Part shown: positions 567 through 50,402 of the stretch, piece by piece
How positions within the stretch are numbered: the first letter of the stretch is position 1
Layout: each line of letters opens with the position of its first letter
NCBI GenBank assembly: GCA_964016885.1
Contig: OZ024741.1
Location: 310,248,001-310,312,000, forward strand
Origin: Eledone cirrhosa
Taxonomy: Eukaryota
Direction of reading: 5' to 3'
DNA length: 64,000 nt
Translations under genes and position numbers: made by a program
Notes under the pieces: generated by a model
Database searches by the model: none
What the model was told of the DNA's origin: nothing
Seen by the model: the letters and a program-made list of their open reading frames with translations, nothing else

Positions 567-1934
567 TTATACTTCTCTTAGGTCAGTGTTGTTTGTTTGG
601 GTGTTGTTGTTATTCCATTCATTCTTTCTGTTTAGTCTTGGCCTTCTAAGTTCTATTTCACTGGCCTCTCTGATTTGCCTATCTGCTGGGTCATTTCTAT
701 GTTTAGATATTATTCTAATTTCTATGTTGTCTATGTTACCGTCGTGTTGTTGTCTGGCATGTTCGTATAGTACTGACCCGTTTTTTCGTCCTTTTAGTTC
801 CGCCCAGTGTTGGTCTATCCTTTCACCTATGCTACGAGCTGTCTCGCCTATGTATGTTGTTGTCATGTTTCTGCAAGTACCCTCTGTACATCTTATGCTA
901 TAGACTACGTTTCTAGTTTTACAGTTTATCCGGGGGTTTACCTTACATATGATACATTTCCTATTAGTACAGTGGGTTTTCTTAACAGGGTAGGTTTTGC
1001 TGATCAGGGATTTTATGGTGGTTCCTGGCTTTTCTACCACCTTAATCTTTAAGTGGGTCTTTCTCAGGGCCTTTCTACACTGGTTAGCTAATTTCCCTCC
1101 AGGGGTAGCGTCCACAAACATGACACTCTGGTATCTCTGGTTGTCGTACCATGAGGTGGCTTTCCCTATCTTATGTGTAGCTCTATCTAAGCTATTCCAT
1201 GATTTGCTCCTGTATAACGGGCAAATTCCTTTCATGTCCAGTTCTATGAGGGTCTTATACTTCTCCATGGCTCCTTCGTATACTCTGACTCTCTCGGTTT
1301 GGTTGTAGCCAGAGAACTGCATACGGTTGATGAAGTGTTGGATGTGTCTTTCCATTTCTGTTGGGTCGCACATGCGGGACACATTCTTCATCACTCGTAC
1401 CAAATCTGCGATCAGAATATTAAACTTAGCACTACTGGACATTGCTGAGTTTTTGAGTATCAGGTATTTGGAGGCCATGGGTTTAGCATAGTGTGAGTGG
1501 AGAATTTGGTCTCTCTCGTCTATAGTGTTAATCCAGAGTTCCGTGTCTAATACAGGTAGTCTATTGTTAGGGTGTTTGGAAGGGAAGTCGATAGTTACAG
1601 TTATAGTCTGGTGTATGGAATTAGCTATCTGCTGGATGCTTTCCATTGTGCTACGTTCTAAATCAAACTTGTTAGTGCTCTCTAGTGGGGATGTTCTTAT
1701 AACTATATTGATATCGTCTACGTAACGAGAGTACATGATGAGGTCTATGGAGCTCTCATTAAGGAGATCTTTAAGTCTCCTTTCCCACCATACCAAGAAA
1801 AGGTTGGCAACATCACCAGCTATGCTGACGCCAATGGCTGCTCCCTCATTTTGGGTGTAGATCTTCTCGTTGAATTTGAATATGTGGCCCTTTAGGGTAG
1901 TTTTGATACTAGCCCCTATTGCATGTGCGACCAT
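567..1934 (-). mobile_element. Penelope-like element, 5'-truncated ORF (RT C-terminal half, thumb, Cys linker, GIY-YIG endonuclease)
   Basis: ORF has RT motifs QNEGAAIG and YSRYVDD, LPVLDTELW, a Cys linker (CTNRKCIIC..NC) and GIY-YIG NVVYSIRC...TYIGETARSIGERIDQH...RQIREA...LNRKNE. Confidence 0.92.
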
Positions 1935-1988
1935 TTTTCTTACCTGATCATTGTTTTGGGGGGTCCGTATAGCTTTGGTCCACCCAAA

Positions 1989-2260
1989 GGGAATTCATTA
2001 AAAGCTAATTCTTTAAAGCTATAAAATATTTAGAGTAACAAAGGCAGAAAGAATTCTATAAACAAGTTCAGAATGGGGTGCCACTCCTTATTTTTAAGTT
2101 TCTCTTAAGCTAACAATGCCTAGATTTCAGGTATGTATAAGATCGTTGGGGGTCAGTCATGGTTGATGGATTTAAAGAAAAGGGAAATTCTTTAAAAGCT
2201 AATTCTTTAAGGTTCTACTTAGTAACAAAGGCCTAGAGAATTCTATAGACCAGTTCAAAA
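1989..2260. repeat. Two diverged tandem copies of a pLTR-like segment; first copy is an exact inverted match to 6534-6590
   Basis: gggaattcattaaaagctaattctttaaagctataaaatatttagagtaacaaaggc (1989-2045) is the reverse complement of 6534-6590; a second diverged copy lies at ~2182-2260. Confidence 0.75.
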
Positions 2261-4183: not shown

Positions 4184-6454
4184 CTATTTGAAAGTTGCAA
4201 AGTTCTTGTGCATGCATTTCGGGCAGTGTTCAGAGAGTTTGTTCAGTAGCGGGTCCTTGGCGAATAAAATTTCATAGCTCTCTGAGATACAAAGGTCGCA
4301 GCCCTTGTGTCCTCCGTTGTAAGAGCGCGCTTTCTGGAGTATTTTCCATTTAAGCGTGAAGGGGGTGGAGTTCCTTTTGAGGTCCCAAACATAGGAGGCG
4401 CGTGTTGTCTGGTTTGATTTGTCCGGTCTTCTGAGGGAGTGGGTATGGGCATACCAACGGGTCTTAAAGTTATTGGAAGTCATGCCGATGTAAGTCTTTT
4501 TGTTGTTGCAATCATCGGTGTCTGAGATGACATCGCATTTGTATACGATATCATTTGTCAGGCATTTGTTTTCAAGTGGGCAGGCTTCCTTATTTAGGCA
4601 ATTACACAAGGCCCCAGACCGGGGATTGGGTTCGGAGGTGGTTGGCTTATTTAATTTTTTAGAATTGTGGTTGGCTATATTCCTAGCTAGGTTAGGTGTG
4701 GTGGAGTAGGAGAGTCTTATTGTGTTCTTATTAAAGATGGTGTAGTACCTATGTTGCATGGTGAAGTTTGTTTTCAGCAAAGTGAAGAAAATCCTAGCTA
4801 TCGGTGTAGAGACCTCTCTATTGAAGGGAGGGTTGTACCAGCTAATCTGCCTATGCCTATTCCGCCTCTGCAATCTTGCGGTGGTTTCTAGGTAGGTTAT
4901 CTTTTCTTTAAATCCGCTGCGGGCGAGGGCCTCATTGTAGTAGGAGGCAGAGGCGTTAAAAATATCTTCGTTGGCAGAGAGGCCAGAGATTCTAATAGAG
5001 ACACTTTTTACTAAGTTATCAGTGATGTTTTGGGGGTGGTTAGAATTAACATTAATATATCTAAGGGACTCGTTTGGTTTGTGGTACGGGTAATAGAGGG
5101 AAGTATCTAGGTCGAGAGTGACATCTAAGAAGTTGGCCCTAGTCATATTAGATTCTATAGTTATACTAAATCCTAGATTAGAGAAGAACGAGCTTAAGTT
5201 TCTCCGAAACCCATCGGTGGTTCTGGGGTTAACCTTGTGCAGAGCGAAGAGGCCATCGTCTCGGTATAAACCTCCGGTTAGGCCGGTAAAGAGGTTCTTC
5301 AGGTGATGTAAGATTTACAAGCCCACAAGGTCACTAATTTCAGCCGAGTCACTCGCTCCCATGCTGACGTCAAATATCCTGACGTCAAATATCCTAGTTC
5401 CAAGAATTACCCGACAAACACCACACTCGCTTCCTGCAACTCGACATAGAAAATGACTATGCTTCTATCTCGGAGCCCCCCTGAAGGACGCAATTACCTT
5501 TGCCAGGAATTTTACCACCATTACCGATGCTGAGCAAGTTGTTATCCTCCACACCCGTCTGAGACTTCTTGTTGATCCAGTAAGATCCATCGTGGTATAG
5601 AAAGGTCTTACGGGCGTGGAGGATAACAACTTGCTCAGCATAGGTAATGGTGGTAAAATTCCTGGCAAAGGTAATTGCGTCCTTCAGGAGGGGCTCCGAG
5701 ATAGAAGCATAGTCGTTTTCTATGTCGAGTTGCAGGAAGCGAGTGTGGTGTTTGTCGGGATATTGCCTCAGATGTTCTGCTCCAGAGTGGGAGTGGTGAG
5801 GCAGCCCGCAATGATGGTAGAACTCTATCTAGGATCTTCTTACTGATAGAGTCTGAACGAGTGGGGTTGATAAGTCTGACTGATGGTTTGTTGAGGAAGT
5901 TTCCCTTATGGTCCTTCAGGGTAAAGTGCGGGGTCTTTACCCTTAAAGGTTCGGTTCGGTCATGTAATTTAAGGGACTTGGCGATTTCTTTTCCGGCCGC
6001 GTTTGTCTCAGTCAATGCCATCTCTATTACCTTTTTGTAGGTGGTCGTGATGGCATTTTTTGCCAGCTTATTGTAGGTCTGTGGGTCTACCTCATAAACG
6101 TTTTTGGTTTTATCGGAGGAGACATGAAGATTAGGGGATTTTTTTATATTCCGCAATTCAGTATTTAAGTAGGCCTGGAATGGTGTGGTGGCTCTACGGA
6201 ATTTTATATCTTTTATCATCTTGAAGAGGTCTTCTTCAAATGGTTGAAGTAGGCTGTTGGTGGGTGGTGTCTTATTCGCTTTGAAGCCGAACTTCTCATC
6301 ATTGGTAGATGCTACATCAGGGTTGTTGAGGAAGAAGGCTCTCCATCTAATGAAAGAACTCGTCGGTACGTCTGATGAGTGTTTTTAGGTATAGTTTCCT
6401 TGGAGGGATTGGGATGTTCTTCATGGAGACATCAAGGTCGAGTTTGGTCAGCAT
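4184..6454 (-). mobile_element. Penelope-like element, frameshifted RT plus GIY-YIG
   Basis: N-terminal KNIPIP..RWRAFF, SDKTKNVY, TLKDHK..VRLINP, MGASDSA, GGLYRDDG, NFLDVTLDL, WYNPPF, CNCLNKEACPL, DIVYKC..TYIGMT..FKTRWYAH. Confidence 0.93.
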
Positions 6455-6685: not shown

Positions 6686-6863
<178 letters not shown>

Positions 6864-13550: not shown

Positions 13551-14524
13551 TATATATATTTATATATATATATATATATACAGACACATATACATACACA
13601 TATATACACACACATACATATACATACATACATACACATATATATACATACACAAACATATATGTACACATATACATATATACACACAAAAATACATACA
13701 CATACACATAGGTATGTGAAGGGCAAAACAAAAAGAATATATGGGGGGGGGGGCTAAGAGGAGGTAAAAATATAAGGGGAGGTAAGGGAGAACATTTTTT
13801 TTTAAATACAAGAGTACAGAAGGTAGAAGCAGCAAAATAAAAGCCGTAGCAAAAGTAAAGAGCAGAGAAGGAGTTCAAGGCGGTTGATTTATCGTAGGAG
13901 TGTCAATCCAGTTACAGATCAGATGCGATTTCAGATGAGGACAGCATCTGAAGATCTCAGTCTTAGAGTTAAGGCAAGCGGAAGTGTCTCTCAAGTTTAG
14001 CAAAATCCTATACTTTTCTGTGGTACACAAAGAACAATTCTTTGTGCCCCTTTGGTACTCCCTCGAATGGTCTAATATAGACCAATCAATAGAGTACGGG
14101 ATATTACTATCCTTGAGATCCCATACCTTACTTGCGAGGGCCGTTGATGTTCGTTTATCTGAGTGTTTAAAAGAAGCGACATGTGAGTAAAATCTGGTTT
14201 TAAACCTGTCCTGGGTCATACCGACATATCGCTCGCTTCTGGCTGGCTGGTTGTTGATAACTGGCGTTATTTTAGCCTCATAAACGACAGATTTTGTGTT
14301 ACATTTACCCTGCAATGGGCATTCATCCGGCTTCCTGCAACTGCATCCTGGATTTATCCTCGTACGGTTTGAACTGGTGATTTTGGATTTCATGGATGGA
14401 CAACAAGAGTAGCTGATCTTAACTACATTCCTATTAAAAATCTTATAATATCTATGAATAGGAGGAAAATGTTTGTCTAATAGTTCAAGGAATTTCCTTC
14501 CTACATTAGTTTTGACCAGGATTT

Positions 14525-14582
14525 TTCATTCTGAGGATTGAAAGCAAAACCTTTTGCTTTTAAGAAACCACTGGTAAATGGA
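14525..14582 (+). ncRNA. Type I hammerhead ribozyme (inverted pLTR copy)
   Basis: Exact reverse complement of 11832-11889; CUGAGGA core, GUA triplet. Confidence 0.87.
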
Positions 14583-14615
14583 ATAATTGCCTTATGTTGT
14601 TTATTACATAATAAT

Positions 14616-18450: not shown

Positions 18451-18639
18451 ATAAAGGTACCTTTTATTCAGAGTGGATAGCAGTAGAAATATTTTTACTG
18501 CAAGATGCAACAAATTTACCTCGTACTTTGAAATGTTTTTGAAATCTTTCTGAAGAAATGCAATATTTAATGTATTACTAGTGAATGGGCATAATAATAT
18601 TAATATGCAATCAACACTATGTAGACTTATAATATAATA

Positions 18640-18698
18640 ATTCTTTAACATGTTTCAATACAATATAACTTATATTGTATTGAAACATGTTAAAGAAT
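18640..18698. repeat. Perfect 59-bp palindrome containing a hammerhead right half
   Basis: attctttaacatgtttcaatacaatataa-c-ttatattgtattgaaacatgttaaagaat. Confidence 0.92.
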
Positions 18699-19394: not shown

Positions 19395-22300
19395 ATCGTC
19401 AGCTCCGCAAAGGTTTGTTATTTCCGTTTGTTAAAAATTGCCATTTATGGAAAATTTTTATTGTTATCTATATATAAGCGCACATACATTGTTTTCCGAA
19501 AAGGACACCCAAAAAGATTGAGGCCTTGTGCCCAAAATTTAAACTTTTATGATTATCAAAAAATTTCTTTGAAAAAAAATGGCTAATTCACCTCTGCACC
19601 AAGCAGCTGAAAGCCTTCCTCACAAATTAACACCTCTCACCGACACCACCATTGTAAATGATACTACGTTTGCCAACACAAACAATTTAAGCACTAGCAA
19701 TATTTTAAATTTGTCTCAGGCAGACATTCATTTCCCGCCATTACCAATGACTGCAGGTGTTAAAGCCGCCAGCATCACCACCACCGCGACAACCCCCCCC
19801 CCACCGCGACAACAGAAACAAAAGGAAAAAATAAATCAACTCGTGATGTCGAAATATTTTGAACCAAATTGGACTCTTCCAAACCGAACTCCACTGACGT
19901 CACCACCACCACAACTGAAACTGAAATTAATAATAACAAAAATAACGATAGCAACAACAACAACAATGACATTAAAAAAACCACCCTGAGTTTTGCCAGA
20001 GTAGCAAAACAGTGAGAAGCATTTACGGTAACTCAGGAGGAATTAGAAAATGCCAAAAAAATGGTAAAGAAAGATGGGTACAGGGTCAGCCTCACCCCCC
20101 ACCTAATAAAATGGAGCATCGGCGCCTATGCACCGTGTCGTATCGAACAATAAATGTAAAATCGCGCCGAGTGGAACGGGCATCCGAGTCCCTAATCCAA
20201 AAAGCTTTGGGACATGTGTGGGTAAGAAAAACCCACATCAGACGTGGGCAGAAGTATGGAACCGTGGACGTGTTCTTTGAAACACCAGAGGAGGCTAGAG
20301 AACACTCCATGGCCCCATTAAGAAGTGACGACTTCACACTCGTCCCAAGCTATTGTGGCCAGAGACTCGTAAAGATCAGGGTGACCCACGTTCCACTGGC
20401 CATCGAAATTCCCTGGCTAATAGCGGCCGTCCTCGCCGGCATCGAAGCCAACACAAAGATAATAGCAATAGCAAAAGAAAAGCAGGAGAACTGGTCCGGA
20501 TCTGGGATGGAGCTCCTGATCCAAGCGGACCAAAAAAGCATTGAGGAGATCCCAGAGGTAATAGACCTCACTGACGGCAGCCACCTCACGGTAATTGTCG
20601 AGGGCAGAAGACCTAGGTGTGTCGTTTGTGGTGAAGGAACCCACCTAAGGGCTTTCTGCCCTCAGGCTAAAAGGTTGAGGCCACCTCTCCTACCCACCCC
20701 AGTGACACAACCATCAACACCACCAGTAGCAGAGATGGCAGCAACAACTGTAGCAGCAACAACAGAAGCAACTATAACAGCAACAACCCCAGCAACAGTA
20801 GCAAAACCAACACCACCACCACCACCAGCAAAACCAACACCACCACCACCCAACGCTTCAGAACTAGCACCAGCGCCTACACCATCCACCACGCCACAAC
20901 CAAAACTAACGGCTGTGCAGGATTTTCCACTCCCCGGCCTATCACAACTGGAGACAGATTGTGACGACGAGGAGTGGGAAACGATATCCGGAAAAAAGAA
21001 AAGAAACCAAAAAAGAAAAAATTCTCTTCCTTCCCCCTCCAAAAACAAAATACAGAGGGAAACAAATAAATTAACAAACAAAAAAGTTAGGACAGATATG
21101 CCACCATCCACACCAGCATCACCAATCCCATCACCCCAAACACCAACACCATCATTAACCCCAAAACCACCATCACCTACACCACAAAAGTCACCAAAAT
21201 GCGAAACAGAAACAAACCCACAACAAACGCAAACAAAACAAAACAACCAAAACGATACACACTACACAGCATTAAATTTGAACAACAAGCAATTATTACA
21301 CTACATCCAACACAACACCAGCATCACAGAAAAAGACTACACAACAACCCCAAAATTCACACCCCCTCCACACATACAAATCACTCGCATCACACAGAAA
21401 ACGTACCTGACACTAAAACAAAAATTCCCCAAAGACATCGGAGACTTCCGACAAGCACTCTCCAGGAGGATGTATAAGGACATCCTTCCGGAGGAGGCCA
21501 CAAGCAGTGAAAAGATGGAAAAACCGTCCTTCCTCTACGAGAAGTAAGGTAAGTGGTCTTTCCCATGTTTTCCACTCCTTTTCAACATGACCTCACTCAG
21601 AATAGGCAGCATAAATGCACGTGGCTTGGGGTCGTCATGGAAGCAGGGCCACCTGCAAAACGACCTCAGGTCACTAAACATAGATGTAGTGGCCATCAGC
21701 GAGACCAGAATCTCCGAAGCACGGGCCTTCGCACCTATCTTCGGCGGCTACGATGTGTACGCATCTCCCAGCCGTCCGGGATCGGGGGGAGGAGTTGCTG
21801 TGCTTTTTCGGAGAGGTTTGGATCTCGCCATACGGGCCATCTTCCTGGACCCAGAAGGTAAGTTGGTGGTGCTGGACGTGACCAGCGGAGACGGGCAAGC
21901 TTTCAGGTTAGTGGCCGTCTATGCCCCGACAGGAGCAGGGCGGCCTGATTTCTTCCGGCGTCTAGAGACCTTTCTTGGAACGTCCCGCTCTTTAGTGTTA
22001 GTGGGCGACTGGAACGGGATCTTAGATGCACGCTGGGATTGTGTGGGATTAGTGGATAGGGAATGAGGGTGCAAGAGTCTCACCAACCTGCTCAGACGTT
22101 TTGAACTGTCTGACAGGTACCGATTGGATTTCCCGAATGTACCAATGTGGACTTGGATAAATCGCATAGGGTCATCCAGATCATCTAGATAGAGTATTTT
22201 GTAGGGACATAGATAGGTCTAGCATAGGCTGTCCACAATTCAAGATAGTCAGTTACACGGACCACAAATTCGTGATCTGTGTGCTAGACTTAGATAGGAT

Positions 22301-25159
22301 TCATAGACGAGGACCCGGCTACTGGAAGCTAAACGCGTCCTTACCAGCGCGCAAGTCCTACAGAGACCGAATTAGCGAACTAGTTAAGCGGGCGTTGACG
22401 GGGGCCATCGTCAACAACAAGTGGTGGTTTGCTCTGAAAAGAGCAATTAGAATAGAGTCCATTAGGTTTAGTAAGGCTTTAGCAATAGAGAAAAATAGAG
22501 CAGAGGGAGAACTAGTTAGAAAATTAGACGAGGCGCTTTGCAAAGGCATCGCTACCGACGTACTTGCGGCGAAATTGGCCCTTGACCAATTCTTCAATGC
22601 AAAGCACGAAGGCTGCGTTGTCAGAGCTAGGGTGCGTGCTGTCAGACACGAGGGGACGAAAGCCGTTCAATGGGCCCGAGTGGCGGAGGCGCGTCGTGGC
22701 AACAAAGCCACTATCTGGTCTTTGGTGGACCACGACGGGCGCATGTTACTCGATCCCGGGCAAATGTGTGAAGCTTTTCAGCGACACTTCGCTCAACTGT
22801 TCGGGGGCAGCGGCGATAACAACCGCTGAAGTACGGGAGGCAATGACTGGCTGCACAAGGCGTAAATCGCCTGGTTTGGATGGTCTGCCCTATGAACTTT
22901 ACGTACAAATGCCAGACTTGTTCGGAGGCCTCTTGGCGGACGTCTACTGCAACTGGCAACAGAACGGGAGAATTCCCAGCTCTGTGAGCCGAGGAGCGGT
23001 GGCGCTGCTGAGAAAGGATCCGAACAAGGGGGATAACATAGATAATTTTAGGCCCATAACTCTGCTAAACACAGAGTTCAAGATTTTGGCCAAGGTGCTA
23101 GGAAAGAGGTTGGCGCTTGTCGTTGGTGGTCTGGTGGGAGAGGCACAGACATGCGCCATTCCCGACAGATCCATCCACGACAACCTCCACCTCATGCGAT
23201 ACATCGTAGAGAGGGTAGCTAGGGAACCTGGCACGGGTGGGTCTTTGATCAATTTAGATCAGTCGAAAGCCTTCGATAGGGTCGACCATCGTTACCTAGC
23301 GGCAGTACTGAGGGCGGCTGGCTTTGGGCCCGTCTTCAGAGGCTGGATCGCTGCCATGCACAGCGACATCTGCTCTGTAGTGAGAGTGAACGGTCACCTT
23401 TCGGAACCGTTCAACATCATGCGCTCGGTCCGCCAAGGATGTCCCCTCTCGTCCCTATTGTACGTATTGACTCTCGAGCAATTACTGCACAAACTGGAGA
23501 CATTGAGGGGGGTCCCGCGCGAACTAGGATGCGGAAGATCCGTGTCAGCATATGCGGACGATGTCGCCGTAGTGGTGTCGAACGCCAAACACATCGAGGC
23601 GATCGGCACTACACTAAGAGAATACGAAGCGGTGACAGGAGCAATGATCAACCAGGAAAAGTCAGTGGGCCTGCAGCTCGGCACCTGGAGAGGCAGGTCC
23701 ATGCCGTCCAACAGCGTCGTCGGGCGCTGGACGGACGGACCGGTTAAATTGCTAGGGGTCTGGTTCGGTCCAGACCTCCAGACGGACAAAAACTGGGACG
23801 AGGTGACGAGCAGGGTGGCTTCTCTCACCCAGAAATGGGCCGAGAGGAAGCTATCCCTGAAAGGTCGAGCGGAGGTGGCTAACGCGTACATCGCGTCCGT
23901 CATCTACTACCGCCTGACCGTCGTACCTTGTCCTAAGCCCCGCCTGACTGCGCTGGAGCGTTTGCTATTTCGCTTCTTGTGGAAGGGACGTGCTCCGATG
24001 GTCAGGCGGTCCATCTGCTGTCAACACCCGCTACGTGGAGGGCTGGGCATGCCGTGGCTGATGATGCGCAGACACGCGCTCAGGCTACGACATCTCCACC
24101 TCTTCCTCGACGGTGATCAGGTGTGGTCGCCGTTTGCTAGACACGTTTTTCCCCAGCTCGTCTCCTTGACGGAGCAGCAGTCCTGGGTCAAGCGAAGACC
24201 GAGAGGGAGCGCTTGGAGACTGGAATGTCTTCAGGCGCTCACAGCCCTCGACCAATCGGGCAATGTGATCGGTGGAAACTCCACCTTGGCGTTCTATAGG
24301 GGATTAGTGGAGGGGAAGAGCGACGACGTACTTGGAGAAACTCTAGGCGTCGACGAAAATCAACTAGCCAATCTCTTCGGAAGGACTTTCGGGCCGGGGC
24401 CTATGGACAACTTCCAGAAATCCCTGGCCTGGCAGTGCTACCGGGGTGCTTTGCCAGTTCGGGATAAACTTTACAGGCTTGGAGGTGCCGTCAGCCGGGC
24501 ATGTCCGAGATGCGCACAGGGCGACGAAACCGTCCTGCACGCACTCGTCCAGTGTCCGAGCATTGCTGACTTGTGGGTTTATGTCGAACACCTGCTGTCA
24601 CGTGTAGGACGGATCCCGATATCAGCTGAGTCCATCGTGAGGATTGCCCCGCCCTCTTCCTTTAGCCGGGAAGGGCAGGCAGTTTTTATCTGTCTGGTGG
24701 CCATGGCGAAAGAGATAGTATGGTGGACACGTTTGAAAGGGCTGAAGACGAGCACTTACCTCTTCGGTGATGCCCTGATTAACTTTTTCAAATTTCATCT
24801 GAAAAGGAAAATCAGGGTAGAGAGGGAAGTGCTCTCTTCCCAGCATTTTGTTGAAAGATGGGTGAGAGAGGCAAGTATGGCCCGAATGAATGGGCCTTCT
24901 CTGAGTATGTGTCTGTAAATTAAAGGTGGAAAACTGGGAGAGGGCACTTGCCCTGGTGGTCAGGGTCACTGTGGTCTTTTAATGGGCTTTCTCCACAAAT
25001 GTCCCTCGGAAGTCTCCCCCCTATTGGGGAATTTTTCTTTGTTATTTTATTACATCCTCTGTTTTTTACACGCAGAAATGCCCATTTGTACCGTCCTGTA
25101 TTGTCCTGTACTGTCCTTAATGTCTACTTTATGTAAACCCTTGTGGTTAATAAAGAAAA

Positions 25160-28509: not shown

Positions 28510-31500
28510 CATCGTGAGCTCCGCAAAGGTTTGTTATTTCCGTTTGTTAAAAATTGCCATTTATGGAAAATTTTATTGTTAACTGTTTATAAGCACACAT
28601 ACATTGTTTTCCGAAAAGGACACCCAAAAAGATTGGGGCCTTGTGCCCGAAATTTTAACTTTTATTATTATCAAAAAATTTCTTTGAAAAAAAAATGGCT
28701 AATTCACCTCTGCACGAAGCAGCTGAAAGCCTTCCTCACAAAATAACACCTCACACCGACACCACCATTGGAAATGTTACTACGTTTGCCAACACAAAAA
28801 AAAATATAAGCAGTAGCAATATTTTAAATTTGTCTCAGGCAGACATTCATTTCCCGCCATTACCAATGACTGCAGGTGTTAAAGCCTCCACCACCACCAC
28901 AACCGCGACAACCACCACCACCACCACCACCACCACCGCGACAACAGAAACAAAAGAAGAAAAAAATAAATTAACTCGTGATGTCGAAATGAAATCAAGC
29001 AAAATGGACTCTTCCCCACCAAAGACGACTGACGTCACCACCACCACAACTGAAACTAAAATTAATATTAACGATAGCAACAACAACAACAATGACATTA
29101 TAAAAACGTCCCCCAGTTTTGCAATAGTAGCAAAACAGTTCGAAGCATATACGGTAACTCAGGAGGATTTAGAAAATGCCAAACAAATGGTAAAGAAAGA
29201 TGGGTACAGGGTCAGCCTCACCCCCCCACCTAATAAAATGGAGCATCGGCGCCTATGCACCGTGTCGTATCGAACAATAAATGTAAAATCGCGCCGAGTG
29301 GAACGGGCATCCGAGTCCCAAATCGAAAAAGCTTTGGGACATGTGTGGGCAAGAAAAACCCACATCAGACGTGGGAAAAAGTATGGAACCGTGGACGTGT
29401 TCTTTGAAACACCAGAGGAGGCTAGAGAACACTCCATGGCCCCATTAAGAAGTGACGACTTCACACTCGTCCCAAGCTATTGTGGCCAGAGACTCGTAAA
29501 GATCAGGGTGACCCACGTTCCACCGGCCATCGAAATTCCCTGGCTAATAGCGGCTGTCCTCGCCGGCATCGAAGCCAACACGAAAATAATAGCAATATCA
29601 AAAGAAAAGCAGGAGAACTGGTCCGGATCTGGTATGGAGCTCCTGATCCAAGCGGACCAAAAAAGCATTGAGGAGATCCCAGAGGTAATAGACCTCACTG
29701 ACGGCAGCCACCTCACGGTAATTGTCAAGGGCAGAAGACCTAGGTGTGTCGTTTGTGGTGAAGGAACCCACCTAAGGGCTTTCTGCCCTCAGGCTAAAAG
29801 GTTGAGGCCACCTCTCCTACCCACCCCAGTGACACAACCATCAACACCACCAGTAGCAGAGATGGCAGCAACAACTGTAGCAGCAACAACAGAAGCAACT
29901 ATAACAGCAACAACCCCAGCAACAGTAGCAAAACCAACACCACCACCACCCAACGCTTCAGAACTAGCACCAGCGCCTACACCATCCACCACGCCACAAC
30001 CAAAACTAACGGCTGTGCAGGATTTTCCACTCTCCGGCCTATCACTGGAGACAGATTGTGACGACGAGGAGTGGGAAACGATATCCGGAAAAAAGAAAAG
30101 AAACCAAAAAAGAAAAAATTCTCTTCCTTCCCCCTCCAAAAACAAAATACAGGGGGAAACAAATAAATTAAGAAACAAAAAAGTTAGGACAGATATGCCA
30201 CCATCCACACCAGCATCACCAACCCCATCAACCCAAACACCAACACCATCACCATCATTAACCCCAACACCACCATCACCTACACCACAAAAGTCACCAA
30301 AATGCGAAACAGAAACAAACCCACAACAAACGCAAACAAAACAAAACAACCAAAACGATACACACTACACAGCATTAAATTTGAACAACAAGCAATTATT
30401 ACACTACATCCAACACAACACCAGCATCACAGAAAAAGACTACACAACAACCCCAAAATTCACACCACCTCCACACATACAAATCACTCGCATCACACAG
30501 AAAACGTACATGACACTAAAACAAAAATTCCCCAAAGACATCGGAGACTTCCGACAAGCACTCTCCAGGAGGATTTATAAGGACATCCTTCCTGAGGAGG
30601 CCACAAGCAGTGAAAAGATGGAAAAACCGTCCTTCCCCTACGAGAAGTAAGGTAAGTGGTCTTTCCCATCTTTTCCACTCCTTTTCAACATGACCTCACT
30701 CAGAATAGGCAGCATAAATGCGCGTGGCTTGGGGTCGTCATGGAAGCAGGGCCACCTGCTCAACGACCTCAGGTCACTAAACATAGATGTAGTGGCCATC
30801 AGCGAGACCAGAATCTCCGAAGCACAGGCTTTCGCACCGATCTTCGGCGGCTACGATGTGTACGCATCTCCCAGCCGTCCGGGATCGGGGGGAGGAGTTG
30901 CTGTGCTTTTTCGGAGAGGTTTGGATCTTGCCATACGGGCCATCTTCCTGGACCCAGAAGGTAAGTTGGTGGTGCTGGACGTGACCAGCGGAGACGGGCA
31001 AGCTTTCAGGCGTCTGGAGACCTTTCTTGGAACGTCCCGCTCTTTAGTGTTAGTGGGCGACTGGAACGGGATCTTAGATGCACGCTGGGATTGTGTGGGA
31101 TTAGTGGATAGGGAATGAGGGTGCAAGAGTCTCACCAACCTGCTCAGACGTTTTGAACTGTCTGACAGGTACCGAATGGATTTCCCGAATGTACCAATGT
31201 GGACTTGGACAAATCGCATAGGGTCATCCAGATCATATCTAGATAGAGTATTTTGTAGGGAAATAGATAGGTCTAGCATAGGCTGTCCACAATTCAAGAT
31301 AGTCAGCTACACGGACCACAAATTCGTGATCTGTGTGCTTGACTTAGATAGGCTTCATAGGCGAGGACCCGGCTACTGGAAGCTAAACGCGTCCTTACCA
31401 GCGCGCATGGCCTACAGAGACCGGATTAGCGAACTAGTTAAGCGGGCGTTGACGGGGGCCATCGTCAACAACAAGTGGTGGTTTGCTCTGAAAAGAGCGA

Positions 31501-33258
31501 TTAGAATAGAGTCCATTAGGTTTAGTAAGGCTTTAGCAATAGAGAAAAATAGAGCAGAGGGAGAACTAGTTAGAAAATTAAACGAGGCGCTTAGCAAAAG
31601 CATCGCTACCGACGTACTTGCGGCGAAATTGACCCTTGACCAATTCTTCAATGCAAAGCACGAAGGCTGCGTTGTCAGAGCTAGGGTGCGTGCTGTCAGA
31701 CACGAGGGGACGAAAGCCGTTCAATGGGCCCGAGTGGCGGAGGCGCGTCGTGGCAACAAAGCCACTATCCGCTCTTTGGCGGACCACGACGGGCGCATGC
31801 TACTCGATCCCGGGAAAATGTGTGAAGCTTTTCAGCGACACTTCGCACAACTGTTCGGGGGCATCGGCAGGCCGGATCGAGGGATGGACTTTCGTGTCTA
31901 CCTCGACGGACTGCCGCGGGTCTCGGCCACCGAGGCGGAGTGTTGTGAAAAGCCGATAACAGCCGCTGAAGTACGGGAGGCAATGACTGGCTGCACAAGG
32001 GGTAAATCGCCTGGTTTGGATGGTCTGCCCTATGAACTTTACGTATAGATGCCAGACTTATTCGGAGGCCTCTTGGCGGACGTCTACTGCAACTGGCAAC
32101 AGAACGGGAGAATTCCCAGCTCTGTGAGCCGAGGAGCGGTGGAGCTGCTGAGAAAGGATCTGAACAAGGAGATAACATAGATAATTTCAGGCCCATAACT
32201 CTGTTAAACACAGAGTTCAAGATTTTGGCCAAGGTTCTTGCAAAGAGGTTGGCGCTTGTCGTTGGTGGTCTGGTTGGGAGAGGCGCAGACATGCGCCATT
32301 CCCGACAGATCCATTCTCGACAACCTCCACCTCATGCGATACATCGTAGAGAGGGTAGCTAGGGAACCTGACACGAGTGGGTCCTTGATCAATTTAGATC
32401 AGTCGAAAGCTTTCAATAGGGTCGACCATCGTTACATAGCGGCAGTCCTGAGGGCGGCTGGCTTTGGGCCCGTCTTCAGAGGCTGGATCGCTGCCATGCA
32501 CAGCAACATCTGCTCTGTGGTGAGAGTGAACGGTCACCTATCGGAACCGTTCAACATCATGCGCTCGCACCGCCAAGGATGTCCCCTCTCGTCCCTATTG
32601 TACGTATTGACTCTCGAGCCATTACTGCACAAACTGGAGACGTTGAGGAGGGTCCCGCGCGAACTCGGATGCGGAAGATCCGTGTCAACATATGTGGACG
32701 ATGTCACCGTAGTGGTGTCGAACGCCAAACACATCGAGGCAATCGGCACTACACTAAGAGAATACGAAGCGGTGACAGGAGCAATGATCAACCAGGAAAA
32801 GTCAGTGGGCCTGTAACTCGGCACCTGGATAGGCAGGTCCATGCTGTCCAACAGCGTCATCGGGCGTTGGACGGACGGACCGGTTAAATTGCTAGGGGTC
32901 TGGTTCGGTCCGGACCTCCAGACGGACAAAAACTGGGACGAGGTGACGAGCAGGGTGGCTTCTCTCACCCAGAAATGGGCGGAGAGGAAGCTATCCCTGA
33001 AAGTCGAGCGGAGGTGGCTAACGCGTACATCGCGTCCGCCAACTACTACCGCCTGACCGTCGTACCTTGTCCTAAGCCTCGCCTGACTACGCTGGAGCGT
33101 TTGCTCCTTCGCTTTTTGTGGAAGGGACGCGCTCCGATAGTCAGGAGGTCCATCTGCTGTCAACACCCGCTACGTGGAGGGGTGGGCATGCCGTAGCTGA
33201 TGATGCGCAGACACGCGCTCAGGCTACGACATCTCGACCTCTTCCTCGACGGAGATAA
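28510..33258 (+). mobile_element. Tx1/L1-clade LINE copy 2, 3'-truncated
   Basis: Highly similar to copy 1; ORF2 from 30690 has several stops and frameshifts and ends abruptly at ~33255. Confidence 0.95.
28695..30650 (+). CDS. Intact LINE ORF1 (651 aa; putative RRM-like region, CCHC zinc knuckle, Pro/Thr-rich tail, basic KKKRNQKRK)
   Basis: Uninterrupted ORF; CX2CX4HX4C; followed 40 bp later by ORF2 ATG. Confidence 0.88.
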   Translation: MANSPLHEAAESLPHKITPHTDTTIGNVTTFANTKKNISSSNILNLSQADIHFPPLPMTAGVKASTTTTTATTTTTTTTTTATTETKEEKNKLTRDVEMKSSKMDSSPPKTTDVTTTTTETKININDSNNNNNDIIKTSPSFAIVAKQFEAYTVTQEDLENAKQMVKKDGYRVSLTPPPNKMEHRRLCTVSYRTINVKSRRVERASESQIEKALGHVWARKTHIRRGKKYGTVDVFFETPEEAREHSMAPLRSDDFTLVPSYCGQRLVKIRVTHVPPAIEIPWLIAAVLAGIEANTKIIAISKEKQENWSGSGMELLIQADQKSIEEIPEVIDLTDGSHLTVIVKGRRPRCVVCGEGTHLRAFCPQAKRLRPPLLPTPVTQPSTPPVAEMAATTVAATTEATITATTPATVAKPTPPPPNASELAPAPTPSTTPQPKLTAVQDFPLSGLSLETDCDDEEWETISGKKKRNQKRKNSLPSPSKNKIQGETNKLRNKKVRTDMPPSTPASPTPSTQTPTPSPSLTPTPPSPTPQKSPKCETETNPQQTQTKQNNQNDTHYTALNLNNKQLLHYIQHNTSITEKDYTTTPKFTPPPHIQITRITQKTYMTLKQKFPKDIGDFRQALSRRIYKDILPEEATSSEKMEKPSFPYEK

Positions 33259-35332: not shown

Positions 35333-35396
<64 letters not shown>

Positions 35397-35592
35397 GGTT
35401 TGTTGGTTCACCACTGGATAGAATTGGTCATTCCGTATGATCAATCTCGTAGTAATATTATGGAGAGTACTCAACGTAATGCAGCTCACCCGTCTTCGTT
35501 TGTGTAGTTGGTGGTGCGAGTATGGAGTGGAGTTAATTATTATAATAAAATAACAGGAGGCTGGACTGGTGTATATCCTTGAAAGGTTTATT

Positions 35593-35650
35593 ATACTATG
35601 ATCATTTCAATGACCGGGTTCCGTATGAATCCGGTGATATCATCAGGTAT
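35593..35650 (-). ncRNA. Minimal type I hammerhead ribozyme, solo cassette
   Basis: atac CTGATGA t-atcaccgg..ccggtcat-t GAAA tgatca TA gtat; palindromic loop III. Confidence 0.82.
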
Positions 35651-35812
35651 TCGAAATATAACAAAGGAATATAACAGACAAAATCCATGGGGCTGAAAAT
35701 CATAGACAAGAGGACAACCGACCATCTAGCATCTTCTACCTCAGTCGGTCGCCCTCAAGTGTCTATGATTTTCAGCCCCATGGATTTTGTTTGTTATATT
35801 TCGAATACCTGA

Positions 35813-35857
<45 letters not shown>

Positions 35858-35922
35858 AGATTTTCTTTAGAACTGCTGGACTAACAACCTAGCAGTCCCC
35901 TCAATATTAATGTTATTGGGCA

Positions 35923-36045
35923 CCCACTGAAGATTTATAAGAGCTCACTTGAATAAGTATCTGTTGATCTTATACAAGCTTCTACATAACTTGGTATAAT
36001 TTCACCCAACTTGTAGAAATCTTATAATGAAACGAGTCGTTTGGG
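35923..36045 (+). ncRNA. Type I hammerhead with ~95-nt stem II domain
   Basis: ccca CTGAAGA t-ttataaga...tcttataa-t GAAA cga-g-tcg TT tggg; homolog at 49794-49920 (-). Confidence 0.7.
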
Positions 36046-36212
36046 AAATGATATATTTGATATATCTCATATGAAATAATACAGCCAATTATCCACACAA
36101 TACAATTTAGTTAGTACCCCAAACGTTTAATTGGGAATATACTCAGGTATTTCCTAATGTTTGTTGAGTGAGTTGGAATTTGGGCGGAGTATCGCTTTTA
36201 GCTTTCTCCGAT

Positions 36213-36294
<82 letters not shown>

Positions 36295-36461
36295 TATAAA
36301 CGGAAAATATGAAACGAAATTTCATTTCTCACTCTCAGTACGGCTGTTACTTAAATATAAGTATGTATACGTACATACATATATGTATACAGACGTCCAG
36401 TAGTATGTATATATATATATACATACATGCACAGACGTTCAATCATCTGGCAGGAAGGTAT

Positions 36462-36504
36462 ACGTTGCTGACGATAGCTAATAAGCTTGAAACTAGTACA
36501 GCGT
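36462..36504 (+). ncRNA. Minimal type I hammerhead ribozyme, solo cassette
   Basis: acgttg CTGACGA t-agct-aata-agct-t GAAA ctag TA cagcgt; palindromic loop III, GUA triplet. Confidence 0.87.
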
Positions 36505-36707
36505 TCCTTTGTCAGGGTTGAACAAATGAGCAACGATGGTTGCTAGACACTGTGCGGCTTAATTCGGGATGTTTGTTTACAAACACACCGAGCATAATAA
36601 TAAATGTTCGGTGAATCCATACGTACATATATATATGTGTGCATGTATGTATATATATATACATACTACTGTACGTCTGTATACATATATGTATGTACGA
36701 ATACATA

Positions 36708-36804
<97 letters not shown>

Positions 36805-36822
36805 CACACATATATACATATA

Positions 36823-38362
36823 GTCGTCAATAGGTGTGCTAAAAATAGCAGCTAAATGGGGGAACCTCGTTGTGGTCCATAGGTTTGCTTGATAAAGCAG
36901 TTATACATAAGCTAAATAGGGGAACCTCATGGTGAACAATAGGTGTGCTAGAAAAAGCATCTAAATAGGGAAAACGTGATTGTGGTCCGTAGAAGTGCTA
37001 AAAATAGCAGCCCAATAGGGGGAAGCACATAGCCGTCCATAGGTGTGCTAGAAATAGCAGCTACATCAACTAAACAGGGAGAACCTCATCGTGGTCCAAA
37101 GACGTGCTAGAAATAGGAACTAAATATGGGGAACCACATGGTGGTCAATATGTGTGCTAGAAATAGGCAGCTACATCAGCTAAAAAGAGGGAACCATATG
37201 GTGGTCAGTATGTGTGCTAGAAGTAGCTGCTAAATAAGGGGAAGCACACGGTGGTCAATAAGTGTGCTAGAAATAGCAGCTACACCAGTTAAACAGGAGG
37301 CACCACGTGGTGGTCCATAGGTATGCTAGAAATAGCAACTAATTTGGGGGAACTTCCTGGTGGTCTATAATTGTGCTAGAAATACCATCTGATTAAATAG
37401 AACTTCATGGTGGTAAATAAGTGTGCAAGAAATAGAAGCTACATCAGCTAAACAGGGGAAATCTCATAATAGTACATAGGTTGGCAAGAAATAGCAGCTA
37501 CACACGCAGGGGAAACTCATGCTGGTCAACGGGTGTGTAAGAAATACCAGCTAAATGACGAAACACATGGTTTGCTAGAAATAAGAGCTACATCAAATAA
37601 ACAGGGGGAACATCATGGTGACCCATAGGTAGGCTAATAATAGCAGTTAAATATGGAGACCCATATGGTGGTCAATAGGTGTGCTAGATATTGCAATTAC
37701 ATCAGCTAAACAGGGGAAAACTCATGGTGGTACATAGGAACAAACTTATAATGTATGTTAGGTGTGCCAAAATAGCAGCTAAATAGGGAGAATCTCATAG
37801 TGGTCGATAAGTGTGCTAGAAAAAGTAGCTAAATCGTGTGAACCTCATACTAGTCCATAAGTGTGTTAAAAATTGAAGCTAAATAGAGGAACCTCATGGT
37901 GGTCCATAGGTGTGCTTGATATAACAGTAAAATAGTGGGCACCTGGTGGTGGACTATAGGTGTGCAAGTAATAGCAGCTACATCGAGCGGAAATTCATAG
38001 TGGTCCAGAGGTGTGCTAAAAATAGCAGCTAAATAGGGGAAACCTCATGCTGGTCCATAGGTGTGGTAGAAATAGCAGGTGAATAGGGAGAATCCTATGG
38101 TGGTCCATAGATGTGCTAGAAATAGCAGCTATATTAGCTAAACAGGCAAATATTATGGTAGTACGTATGTGTGCTAGAAATAACAGCTACATAGGGGAAC
38201 CTCACGGTCGTTCATAGGTTGTCGAGAAATAGTAGCTACATCAGCTAAACAGAGGGAACCTCATGGTGGTCCTTAGGTGTGGTAGAAATAGCATCTAAAG
38301 ATGGGAACGCGATAGTTGTCAATAGTTGTGCAAGAAATAGCAAGAAATAGCAGCTAAAGATG
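36823..38362 (+). repeat. Tandem satellite of mixed ~50-bp and ~59-bp units
   Basis: Consensus ataggtgtgctagaaatagcagct[acatcagct]aaataggggaacctcatggtggtcc, roughly 28 diverged copies. Confidence 0.92.
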
Positions 38363-49619: not shown

Positions 49620-50040
49620 AATACATTATCGGAGAAAGCTAATAGCGATACTCCGGCCAAATCCCAACTCACTCAACAAACATTAGGAAATAAGTGAGTA
49701 TATTCCTAATTAAACGTTCGGGGTGTTAACAAATTGTATTTTGTGGAAAATTGGCTGTATTATTTCATATGAGATATATCAAATATATCTCTTCCCAGAC
49801 GGACGTCTCGCTTCATTATAAGATTCCTACAAGTTAGGTGAAATTATACCAATTTATGTAGAAGCTTGTATAAGATCAACAGATACTTATTCAAGTGGGC
49901 TCTTATAATTCTTCAGTAGGTGCCCAATAATATTAATATTGATAATCAAATCAACATCAATATTTAGCGATAATCACCATCAGTGGTTGAGGTAGCTGTT
50001 AGATTGCTAGCCCAGCAGTTCTAAAGAAATTCTCATACTG
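49620..50040 (-). mobile_element. Solo pLTR-like cassette, homolog of 35854-36215, carrying the long-stem-II HHR (49794-49920) with GAAA changed to GAAG
   Basis: Reverse complement aligns with 35856-36212. Confidence 0.8.
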
Positions 50041-50402
50041 TCTCAAAAAAAGAGGAAGGAGAATTACCGCCAAAATACAATACATGCGCAGGACAATGAA
50101 TTCTAAAAGGAATTCAAGCCACGTGCTAGAACTCAATTAGAATTTGAAAAAATATCCATATGTGTACATCGTTTGATGACACACATAGATATTTTCTCGG
50201 GCAAAATAACAGAATGAGATACAAGAAACAATCAATATTCATATATAAAAATAAACAAAGAGAGTCAAACCTTATATCGGGAAGTTCATATCCGTTGCAC
50301 CAAGAGTAATTTTATAAATACATTATCGGAGAAAGCTAATAGCGATACTCCGATATTTATATATATATATATATAAGAAGCAAAGAAAATTTCAATGATA
50401 CG

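Follow-up and report, generated by a model that had tools for sequence, protein, structure and literature searches.

Type I hammerhead motifs like those described here have been reported from two kinds of mobile DNA, the non-LTR retrozymes and the Penelope-like elements (PLEs). Insertions of PLEs are described as partial tandems with an inverted 5' copy and an optional tail (PMC8557442, PMC3846280), and their reverse transcription is reported to initiate internally, at two sites downstream of the hammerhead, on AT-rich targets (PMC11167929). Minimal PLE hammerheads were uncleaved as single motifs and cleaved at a low level as dimers (PMC4209133). For the retrozymes, eight of nine Xenopus dimers were uncleaved in vitro in a study whose phylogenetic scope leaves out invertebrates (bioRxiv 10.64898/2026.07.22.740005), and the axolotl hammerhead HHR_Amex2, which has a U.U at the base of helix II, reached 22% cleavage in monomeric form and more in dimeric form (PMC7229834). 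The enzyme that moves animal retrozymes has so far been inferred rather than shown, according to the latter source.

The window, meaning the whole 64-kb stretch of DNA analyzed here, comes from a genome of 3.0 Gb with chromosomes of up to 443 Mb, likely that of an animal to judge by its elements, and is crowded throughout with microsatellites and retroelement fragments. At window positions 35,337 to 36,822, three hammerhead-bearing cassettes lie between (TA)n tracts. We read them as truncated copies of three non-coding, high-copy families, called U1, U2, and U3 below, which very probably were inserted into one (TA)n tract, likely independently of one another, by the proteins of an autonomous PLE acting in trans.

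Layout of the cluster and its hammerhead motifs

The features of the cluster, in window coordinates, are as follows.

35337 to 35393, no strand: (TA)28 tract, the 3' flank of cassette 1
35396 to 35762, minus: main piece of cassette 1, U1 positions 1725-2086 (the 3' 362 nt), 92.6% identical by blastn to a natural unit
35593 to 35650, minus: HHR1, type I, U10.1.U11.1, AUA triplet, predicted cut after 35597
35760 to 35818, plus: 5'-inverted piece of U1, positions 1779-1850, ending within a partial hammerhead core that enters the TA tract
35815 to 35854, no strand: (TA)20 tract separating cassettes 1 and 2
35854 to 36216, plus: cassette 2, a 5'-truncated U2 made of unit positions 282-332 and 377-692, with 44 nt missing
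35923 to 36045, plus: HHR2, type I, 95-nt branched domain II, U10.1.U11.1, GUU triplet, predicted cut after 36041
36213 to 36298, no strand: (TA)n tract separating cassettes 2 and 3
36299 to 36433, minus: 5'-inverted piece of U3, unit positions 299-427
36432 to 36717, plus: main piece of cassette 3, a truncated U3 monomer, unit positions 91-374, ending at the commonest 3' end of the family
36462 to 36504, plus: HHR3, minimal type I, stem III ACUAGU, GUA triplet, predicted cut after 36498
36627 to 36822, no strand: TA-rich or (TA)n tract, of which 36710 to 36822 is listed as the 3' flank of cassette 3

An earlier note on this DNA had described the four tracts, three cassettes, and three hammerheads, and all were found where it had placed them. 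Its description of the cassettes as nonhomologous and noncoding also held: the full U1, U2, and U3 units gave no mutual alignment better than an E value of 0.27, and the ATG-started frames within positions 35340 to 36820 reach at most 84 amino acids, five of the six being mostly microsatellite translation. The two inverted duplications that it had called internal (35637-35818 and 36355-36433/36638-36714) exist, but they are the usual 5' inversions of Penelope-type elements. The cassettes themselves cannot be taken for whole units as that note had done; none of the three is complete, all being 5' truncated and two also 5' inverted, and they derive from families of 2,086, 692, and 427 nt. Contigs of four sequencing runs matched the locus at the family level, with no piece spanning it, and the few contig pieces from organisms B and C match no more than portions of the families. 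On the right, the cluster adjoins a minisatellite with repeats of 50, 101, and 109 nt (window 36826-38342). Elsewhere in the window two related LINE-type elements with ORF1, endonuclease, and reverse transcriptase frames lie in tandem orientation on the plus strand (19976-24918 and 28659-33169).

The conserved anatomy of HHR1, HHR2, and HHR3 establishes them as real motifs and, from the sequence, as predicted ribozymes. HHR1 (minus strand, 35650-35593) has a stem I of 4 bp, CUGAUGA at 35646-35640, and GAAA at 35608-35605; its stem III is a perfect 8-nt palindrome, AUGAUCAU, with predicted cleavage after A35597. A search of both strands with a type I descriptor gave six motifs in the window, against zero in 100 dinucleotide shuffles of it made block by block. 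HHR2 and HHR3 pass the strict form of this descriptor. HHR1 fails it at a C.C mismatch that follows the first 2 bp of stem II, after which 5 more bp form, and this variant is the commonest in the U1 family (12 of 34). In all three motifs stem II is closed by U10.1.U11.1 and not by G-C, with 4 bp following in HHR3, and the feature of minimal PLE hammerheads, G10.1-C11.1 with an extra nucleotide after A9, is absent from each. Natural hammerheads with a U.U closure are known, and the closure is tolerated (PMC3088659). The motifs described by the earlier note are confirmed. Counting against them, an Rfam scan gave no hammerhead among its 93 matches at E ≤ 1; the analysis adds three U.U-closed predicted hammerheads that Rfam overlooked. 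The microRNA matches in the same scan were rejected as TA- and CA-repeat artifacts below the gathering score.

The palindromic helix III and loop 3 that would serve cleavage as a dimer are present, with predicted homoduplexes of -4.8 to -9.6 kcal/mol. Also on the negative side, the isolated motifs do not fold with unusual stability (z of -0.70, -1.23, and +0.37), which is expected for motifs that need a dimer. Across the families, the core is intact in 38 of 42 extracted U3 motifs and 16 of 20 U2 motifs, overlapping loci being kept in these counts. Two further motifs were seen in the window. One, at 6686-6736 on the plus strand, again has U10.1.U11.1 and lies beside (TC)n(TA)n, upstream of and antisense to PLE ORF fragments at 4184-6384; the other, at 18545-18696 on the plus strand, is a descriptor match with a palindromic stem III and an AT-rich domain II of 125 nt (domain z of -3.0).

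Three families for which no coding parent was found

Exact motif matches in the genome numbered 4,832 for U1, 204 for U2, and 6,060 for U3, against none for reversed controls; these counts are lower bounds on motifs and not numbers of insertions. Family membership was taken from genome searches in which the best 40 candidates were scored per search.

U3 is a 427-nt unit repeated head to tail at a spacing of about 430 nt, each unit carrying a single type I hammerhead. Its arrays contain 5, 10, or about 50 units, the longest consisting of 51 pieces over about 21 kb, in which neighboring units are about 96% alike (differing by about 3.6%). This array lies at contig C1:51,772,400-51,793,800, and some of its cores are mutated. 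U2 is likewise a head-to-tail unit, of 692 nt, with one type I hammerhead and a spacing of 679 to 699 nt; its arrays range from monomers to trimers, with no more than three full units and part of another. As circles, both units are predicted to be about 66% paired, with minimum free energies well below those of shuffled sequences (z of -9.3 against 60 shuffles for U3 and -5.3 against 30 shuffles for U2), and their GC contents are 0.37 (U3) and 0.35 (U2). U3 and U2 fit non-LTR retrozymes in sequence, all readable features that were tested being present. An older, second U2 insertion on the minus strand of the window (49624-50352) holds a full 692-nt unit and a 32-nt partial, 86% alike; its hammerhead is damaged, short stretches of TA border it, and DNA from its flank is duplicated in inverted orientation.

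The architecture of U1 is different. In this 2,086-nt element a copy of its own 3' end stands before a non-coding body, and the hammerhead region closes that body. This partial tandem, with the 3' end (pLTR) preceding the 5' part, was found at 23 of 30 loci, and the pLTR was followed by the same non-coding body at all 30, some of them broken off early, across subfamilies that are 76 to 95% alike. By its architecture U1 is a non-autonomous Penelope-type element, for which no parent was found.

The best-surviving alternative, still a very improbable one in our estimate, is that the cassettes are mere 3' stubs, or solo pLTRs, of ORF-bearing PLEs that were missed, and have no life cycle of their own. 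A hammerhead near the 3' end, a tail, and an inversion are what PLE ends look like (PMC8557442, PMC3846280), and the genome searches scored the best 40 to 150 candidates only. Against such an origin, U2 and U3 units join one another in tandem with no ORF at the junction, and the U1 pLTR leads to the same non-coding body throughout. Searches with PLE proteins, taken both from intact copies and from the window, gave no match to U1, U2, or U3 better than an E value of 0.37; at the DNA level, the three families showed no similarity to PLE families A and B (described below) or to the PLE fragments of the window beyond simple repeats. No ORF for a reverse transcriptase plus GIY-YIG endonuclease was found between pLTRs in U1, U2, or U3, and the 5' part of U1 led into a PLE ORF at 0 of 30 loci. 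ORF fragments lay upstream on the same strand at 6 of 157 loci, none of them joined to the pLTR by an endonuclease and stop codon: two are matches to a LINE-type ORF, two break off in mid-protein, one is the end of family A itself, and one is a 29-amino-acid match. In the 5' region of U1, T-rich frames of 112 to 149 amino acids occur at 9 of 30 loci (one was scanned, with no Pfam match), and of 450 candidates 150 were scored, in which the open frame surrounding a 51-amino-acid 5' frame reached at most 120 amino acids.

No ORF-bearing parent was thus found for any of the three families; one may be diverged or unassembled. The finding supports the earlier description of retrozyme-like or pLTR-like units without a long ORF. 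A 43-amino-acid hydrophobic ATG frame in the U1 5' region (L279:1570-1698, plus strand) is kept in most U1 copies and has no Pfam or Atlas match. It is not established as a gene: its shared changes show a weak synonymous excess, 10 against 5 nonsynonymous, but other frames show 7 against 6 and 6 against 7.

Probable insertion into (TA)n tracts and proposed formation of the cluster

Flanks were sampled from the first 30 pattern matches per family on contig C1, with rows of the same insertion dropped (7 for U1, 4 for U2, and 9 for U3); the samples are first matches on one chromosome and not a random genome-wide draw. On the 3' side, (TA)5 or more was found in 20 of 23 U1, 23 of 26 U2, and 14 of 21 U3 insertions, the last count replacing one of 9 of 21 whose alignments ran into the TA tracts; no TA tract follows about a third of the U3 3' ends (7 of 21). 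On the 5' side the counts were 11 of 23, 17 of 26, and 8 of 20, respectively. The chance TA background is 3.8% in the window and 9.0% in 27 ten-kilobase stretches. In these contig C1 samples, TA flanks therefore stand well above background on both sides of all three families, as the proposal of homing into (TA)n had it. The earlier note had named as its counter-case copies confined to ORF-bearing PLEs and without TA bias; we found a TA bias and no ORF-bearing parent, an outcome in favor of the note.

The 3' ends of the insertions are fixed. In U2, 41 of 45 fall at unit positions 685-692; in U3, 30 of 48 fall at 368-381 (near 374) and 13 of 48 at 421-427; and in U1, 12 of 23 fall at 1939-1953 (near 1946) and 9 of 23 at 2077-2086, about 135 nt apart. 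All lie 56 to 270 nt downstream of the predicted hammerhead cut site. The 5' ends are scattered or inverted, with an inverted piece in 11 of 23 U1 copies. They did not pile up at the cleavage site, either among 47 U3 starts (nearest 145 and 169, site at 158) or among 45 U2 starts (nearest 527, site at 518), from loci mostly selected by their hammerhead. Fixed 3' ends, scattered or inverted 5' ends, and optional tails together make up the signature of PLEs. U1 position 1726 (near window position 35761) is a hot spot of truncation and inversion at a strong hairpin, where 6 of 23 position-ordered copies break.

Many ends overlap a TA-like template by at least 2 nt: 28 of 29 in U2, 15 of 25 in U1, and 22 of 26 in PLE family A (at least four of these being internal tracts), where 7 to 11% would be expected. 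The overlap hints at priming by short pairing. A corresponding count for U3 junctions (36 of 41) was rejected, most rows being TA tracts inside the unit. The ends lie within (TA)n, where a target-site duplication is unreadable.

A different route of spread, by LINE-type reverse transcriptase or by amplification and dispersal of a satellite at the DNA level, would make the TA tracts tails added or expanded at insertion and not targets. LINE-type ORFs are abundant in the window, the divergence of about 3.6% between neighbors in the long U3 array indicates that DNA-level turnover occurs, and the element ends fall within TA-like sequence of the element's own. A 3' tail, however, cannot account for TA at the variable 5' ends of U2 and U1 counted above, which points to a TA target that existed before insertion, and the head-to-head inversions, partial tandems, and paired 3' ends are hallmarks of PLEs that family A shows as well. 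We consider this route even more doubtful than the stubs of missed PLEs.

Two young autonomous PLE families, A and B, are candidates for the helper; for each, 150 scored copies were 96 to 100% identical. Family A has intact ORFs of 1,150 to 1,217 amino acids with a C-x4-C-x2-C linker, which in Neptune elements is tied to a (TA)n bias (PMC8557442). Of its 27 readable ends 26 run into (TA)n, it too has alternative ends, and the end motif was absent from 3 of 30. Family B (714 amino acids) carries the Hydra-clade motifs RWK, DKT, and CxCx5C (PMC8557442). We call family A Neptune-like and family B Hydra-like, names that come from motifs alone and not from a tree; their full ORFs had no match in Pfam or the PDB. 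Family A is the best candidate and the likely helper, judged from its target and its end pattern only, and other PLE families exist in the genome beyond the two surveyed. Copies of family A at window 567-1994 (minus) and at a second locus (L168) carry an asparagine-rich insert, and the family A hammerhead is only a half, with a core and stem II and unclear stems I and III. Family B has two identical hammerheads with U10.1-A11.1 in the window (14524-14583, plus, and 11890-11831, minus), one of them inverted on the 5' side of the ORF fragment at 13875-14525; intact copies have a second, degenerate hammerhead-like motif about 400 to 490 nt past the stop codon.

On our preferred reading, insertion by PLE proteins in trans, tandem master loci would be transcribed, and homodimeric hammerheads may cut the multimers into monomers or circles. 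The PLE endonuclease would nick (TA)n, and reverse transcription of a multimer or circle that had stayed uncut would start inside it, at UA-rich sites, run back through the hammerhead, and often stop early or fold back, giving the 5' inversions. Every insertion would divide the TA tract into two new TA targets, so that unrelated families would pile up. A more specific version, which we hold only tentatively and judge somewhat less probable than its negation, is that one Neptune-like PLE protein mobilizes several ribozyme RNAs that have no sequence in common with it or with one another. Short pairing with nicked (TA)n would let reverse transcription begin at fixed UA-rich positions inside the RNA, past the hammerhead, the template being a multimer or circle that has not been cut; U1, at 2.1 kb, would be an unusually large member, possibly with a 43-amino-acid peptide. 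If that version is true, the families directly record retrozyme integration.

It is likely that the three cassettes, parasites of known kinds, became neighbors by chance and that no array was built for a purpose. The U2-TA-U3 junction pattern has two matches in the genome, of which one is the window and the other involves no U3; the composite junction occurs once. Another of five families lay within 150 nt at 8 of 142 loci (15 further rows having been dropped as duplicates), with varying partners and orientations, and pairs among U1, U2, and U3 themselves made up 2 of 142. If neighbors occur at about 3% per side, some 10,000 insertions should by a rough inference include several mixed-family triples; the exact trio is a rare draw.

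The earlier note's built array, with an RNA of about 460 nt excised between two same-strand hammerheads, does not fit these observations: partners and order differ elsewhere, and HHR1 faces the opposite way. In favor of such excision, HHR2 and HHR3 lie on the same strand with intact cores and predicted cleavage sites 457 nt apart, the HHR2 monomer can form a 3-bp stem III, and U.U-closed hammerheads are able to cleave (HHR_Amex2, 22% as a monomer, PMC7229834) or are tolerated (PMC3088659). A U2/U3 heterodimer of stem III, however, is predicted at -0.4 kcal/mol, against -4.8, -7.2, and -9.6 kcal/mol for the homodimers, which would make HHR3 dependent on another copy of U3; the 457-nt piece would be chimeric, joining the tail of U2 to a TA tract and a fragment of U3 in inverted orientation; and HHR2 in the window carries a minority triplet (in the first 100 genomic matches, GUC occurs 89 times and GUU 10). 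The excised RNA is possible on paper and unlikely to matter, and with three cassettes that are ordinary truncated family copies, a functional or comobilized ribozyme array releasing a 457-nt and possibly circularized RNA is the least credible of the explanations weighed here.

Comparison with retrozymes and Penelope-like elements

Like U2 and U3, the non-LTR retrozymes described in PMC7229834 and bioRxiv 10.64898/2026.07.22.740005 are non-coding tandem units with a type I hammerhead and a GC content below 50%, occur as monomers to multimers, are predicted to form self-paired circles, and coexist with PLEs. The U.U at the base of helix II in the axolotl HHR_Amex2 is found in HHR1 to HHR3 as well (PMC7229834). 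At 692 nt, U2 exceeds the usual retrozyme size of 150 to 450 bp and falls within the full range of 51 to 972 bp (bioRxiv 10.64898/2026.07.22.740005), and the 95-nt branched domain II of its HHR2 differs from known non-LTR retrozymes as those sources present them. The accessible text of the same two sources does not describe non-LTR retrozymes with strong targeting of (TA)n, 3' ends fixed at internal positions, or inversions at the 5' end. A further difference is that U1 to U3, here known from DNA sequence, had no pLTR homology to a helper that we could find. In the open papers searched there was no description of U1 to U3 or of (TA)n-targeted retrozymes; Repbase and Dfam lay outside that search, so the families may already be catalogued.

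With endonuclease-bearing PLEs (PMC4209133, PMC8557442, PMC3846280, PMC11167929), U1 to U3 share partial tandems, 5' truncation and inversion, an optional tail, a 3'-proximal hammerhead, a palindromic helix III, and AT-rich or (TA)n targets. They differ in that the reverse transcriptase/GIY-YIG ORF of those elements is absent and their G10.1-C11.1 is U.U here. The tails of 53 nt (U3) and about 135 nt (U1) compare with 30 to 40 nt as given for PLEs, and the ends of U1 and U2 overlap a TA-like template, whereas the anole element is reported to initiate at a site nonhomologous to the cut DNA. U1, a 2.1-kb body between pLTR-like ends that has no long ORF and has multiplied as a family, is closest in kind to non-autonomous PLEs such as Chlamys-type MRC1 (PMC8557442) and the unrelated DNA carried between pLTRs in Adineta (PMC3846280). 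Known non-autonomous PLEs, as described, generally share 3' sequence with an autonomous family; the families tested here yielded no such partner for U1.

The grouping of the three cassettes is likely accidental, and the families behind it are a test bed for retrozyme movement. Beside the described systems, this genome offers thousands of young retrozyme insertions, readable PLE-type junctions, and intact candidate helper ORFs, and the mover of animal retrozymes is testable here with the published in vitro PLE assay.
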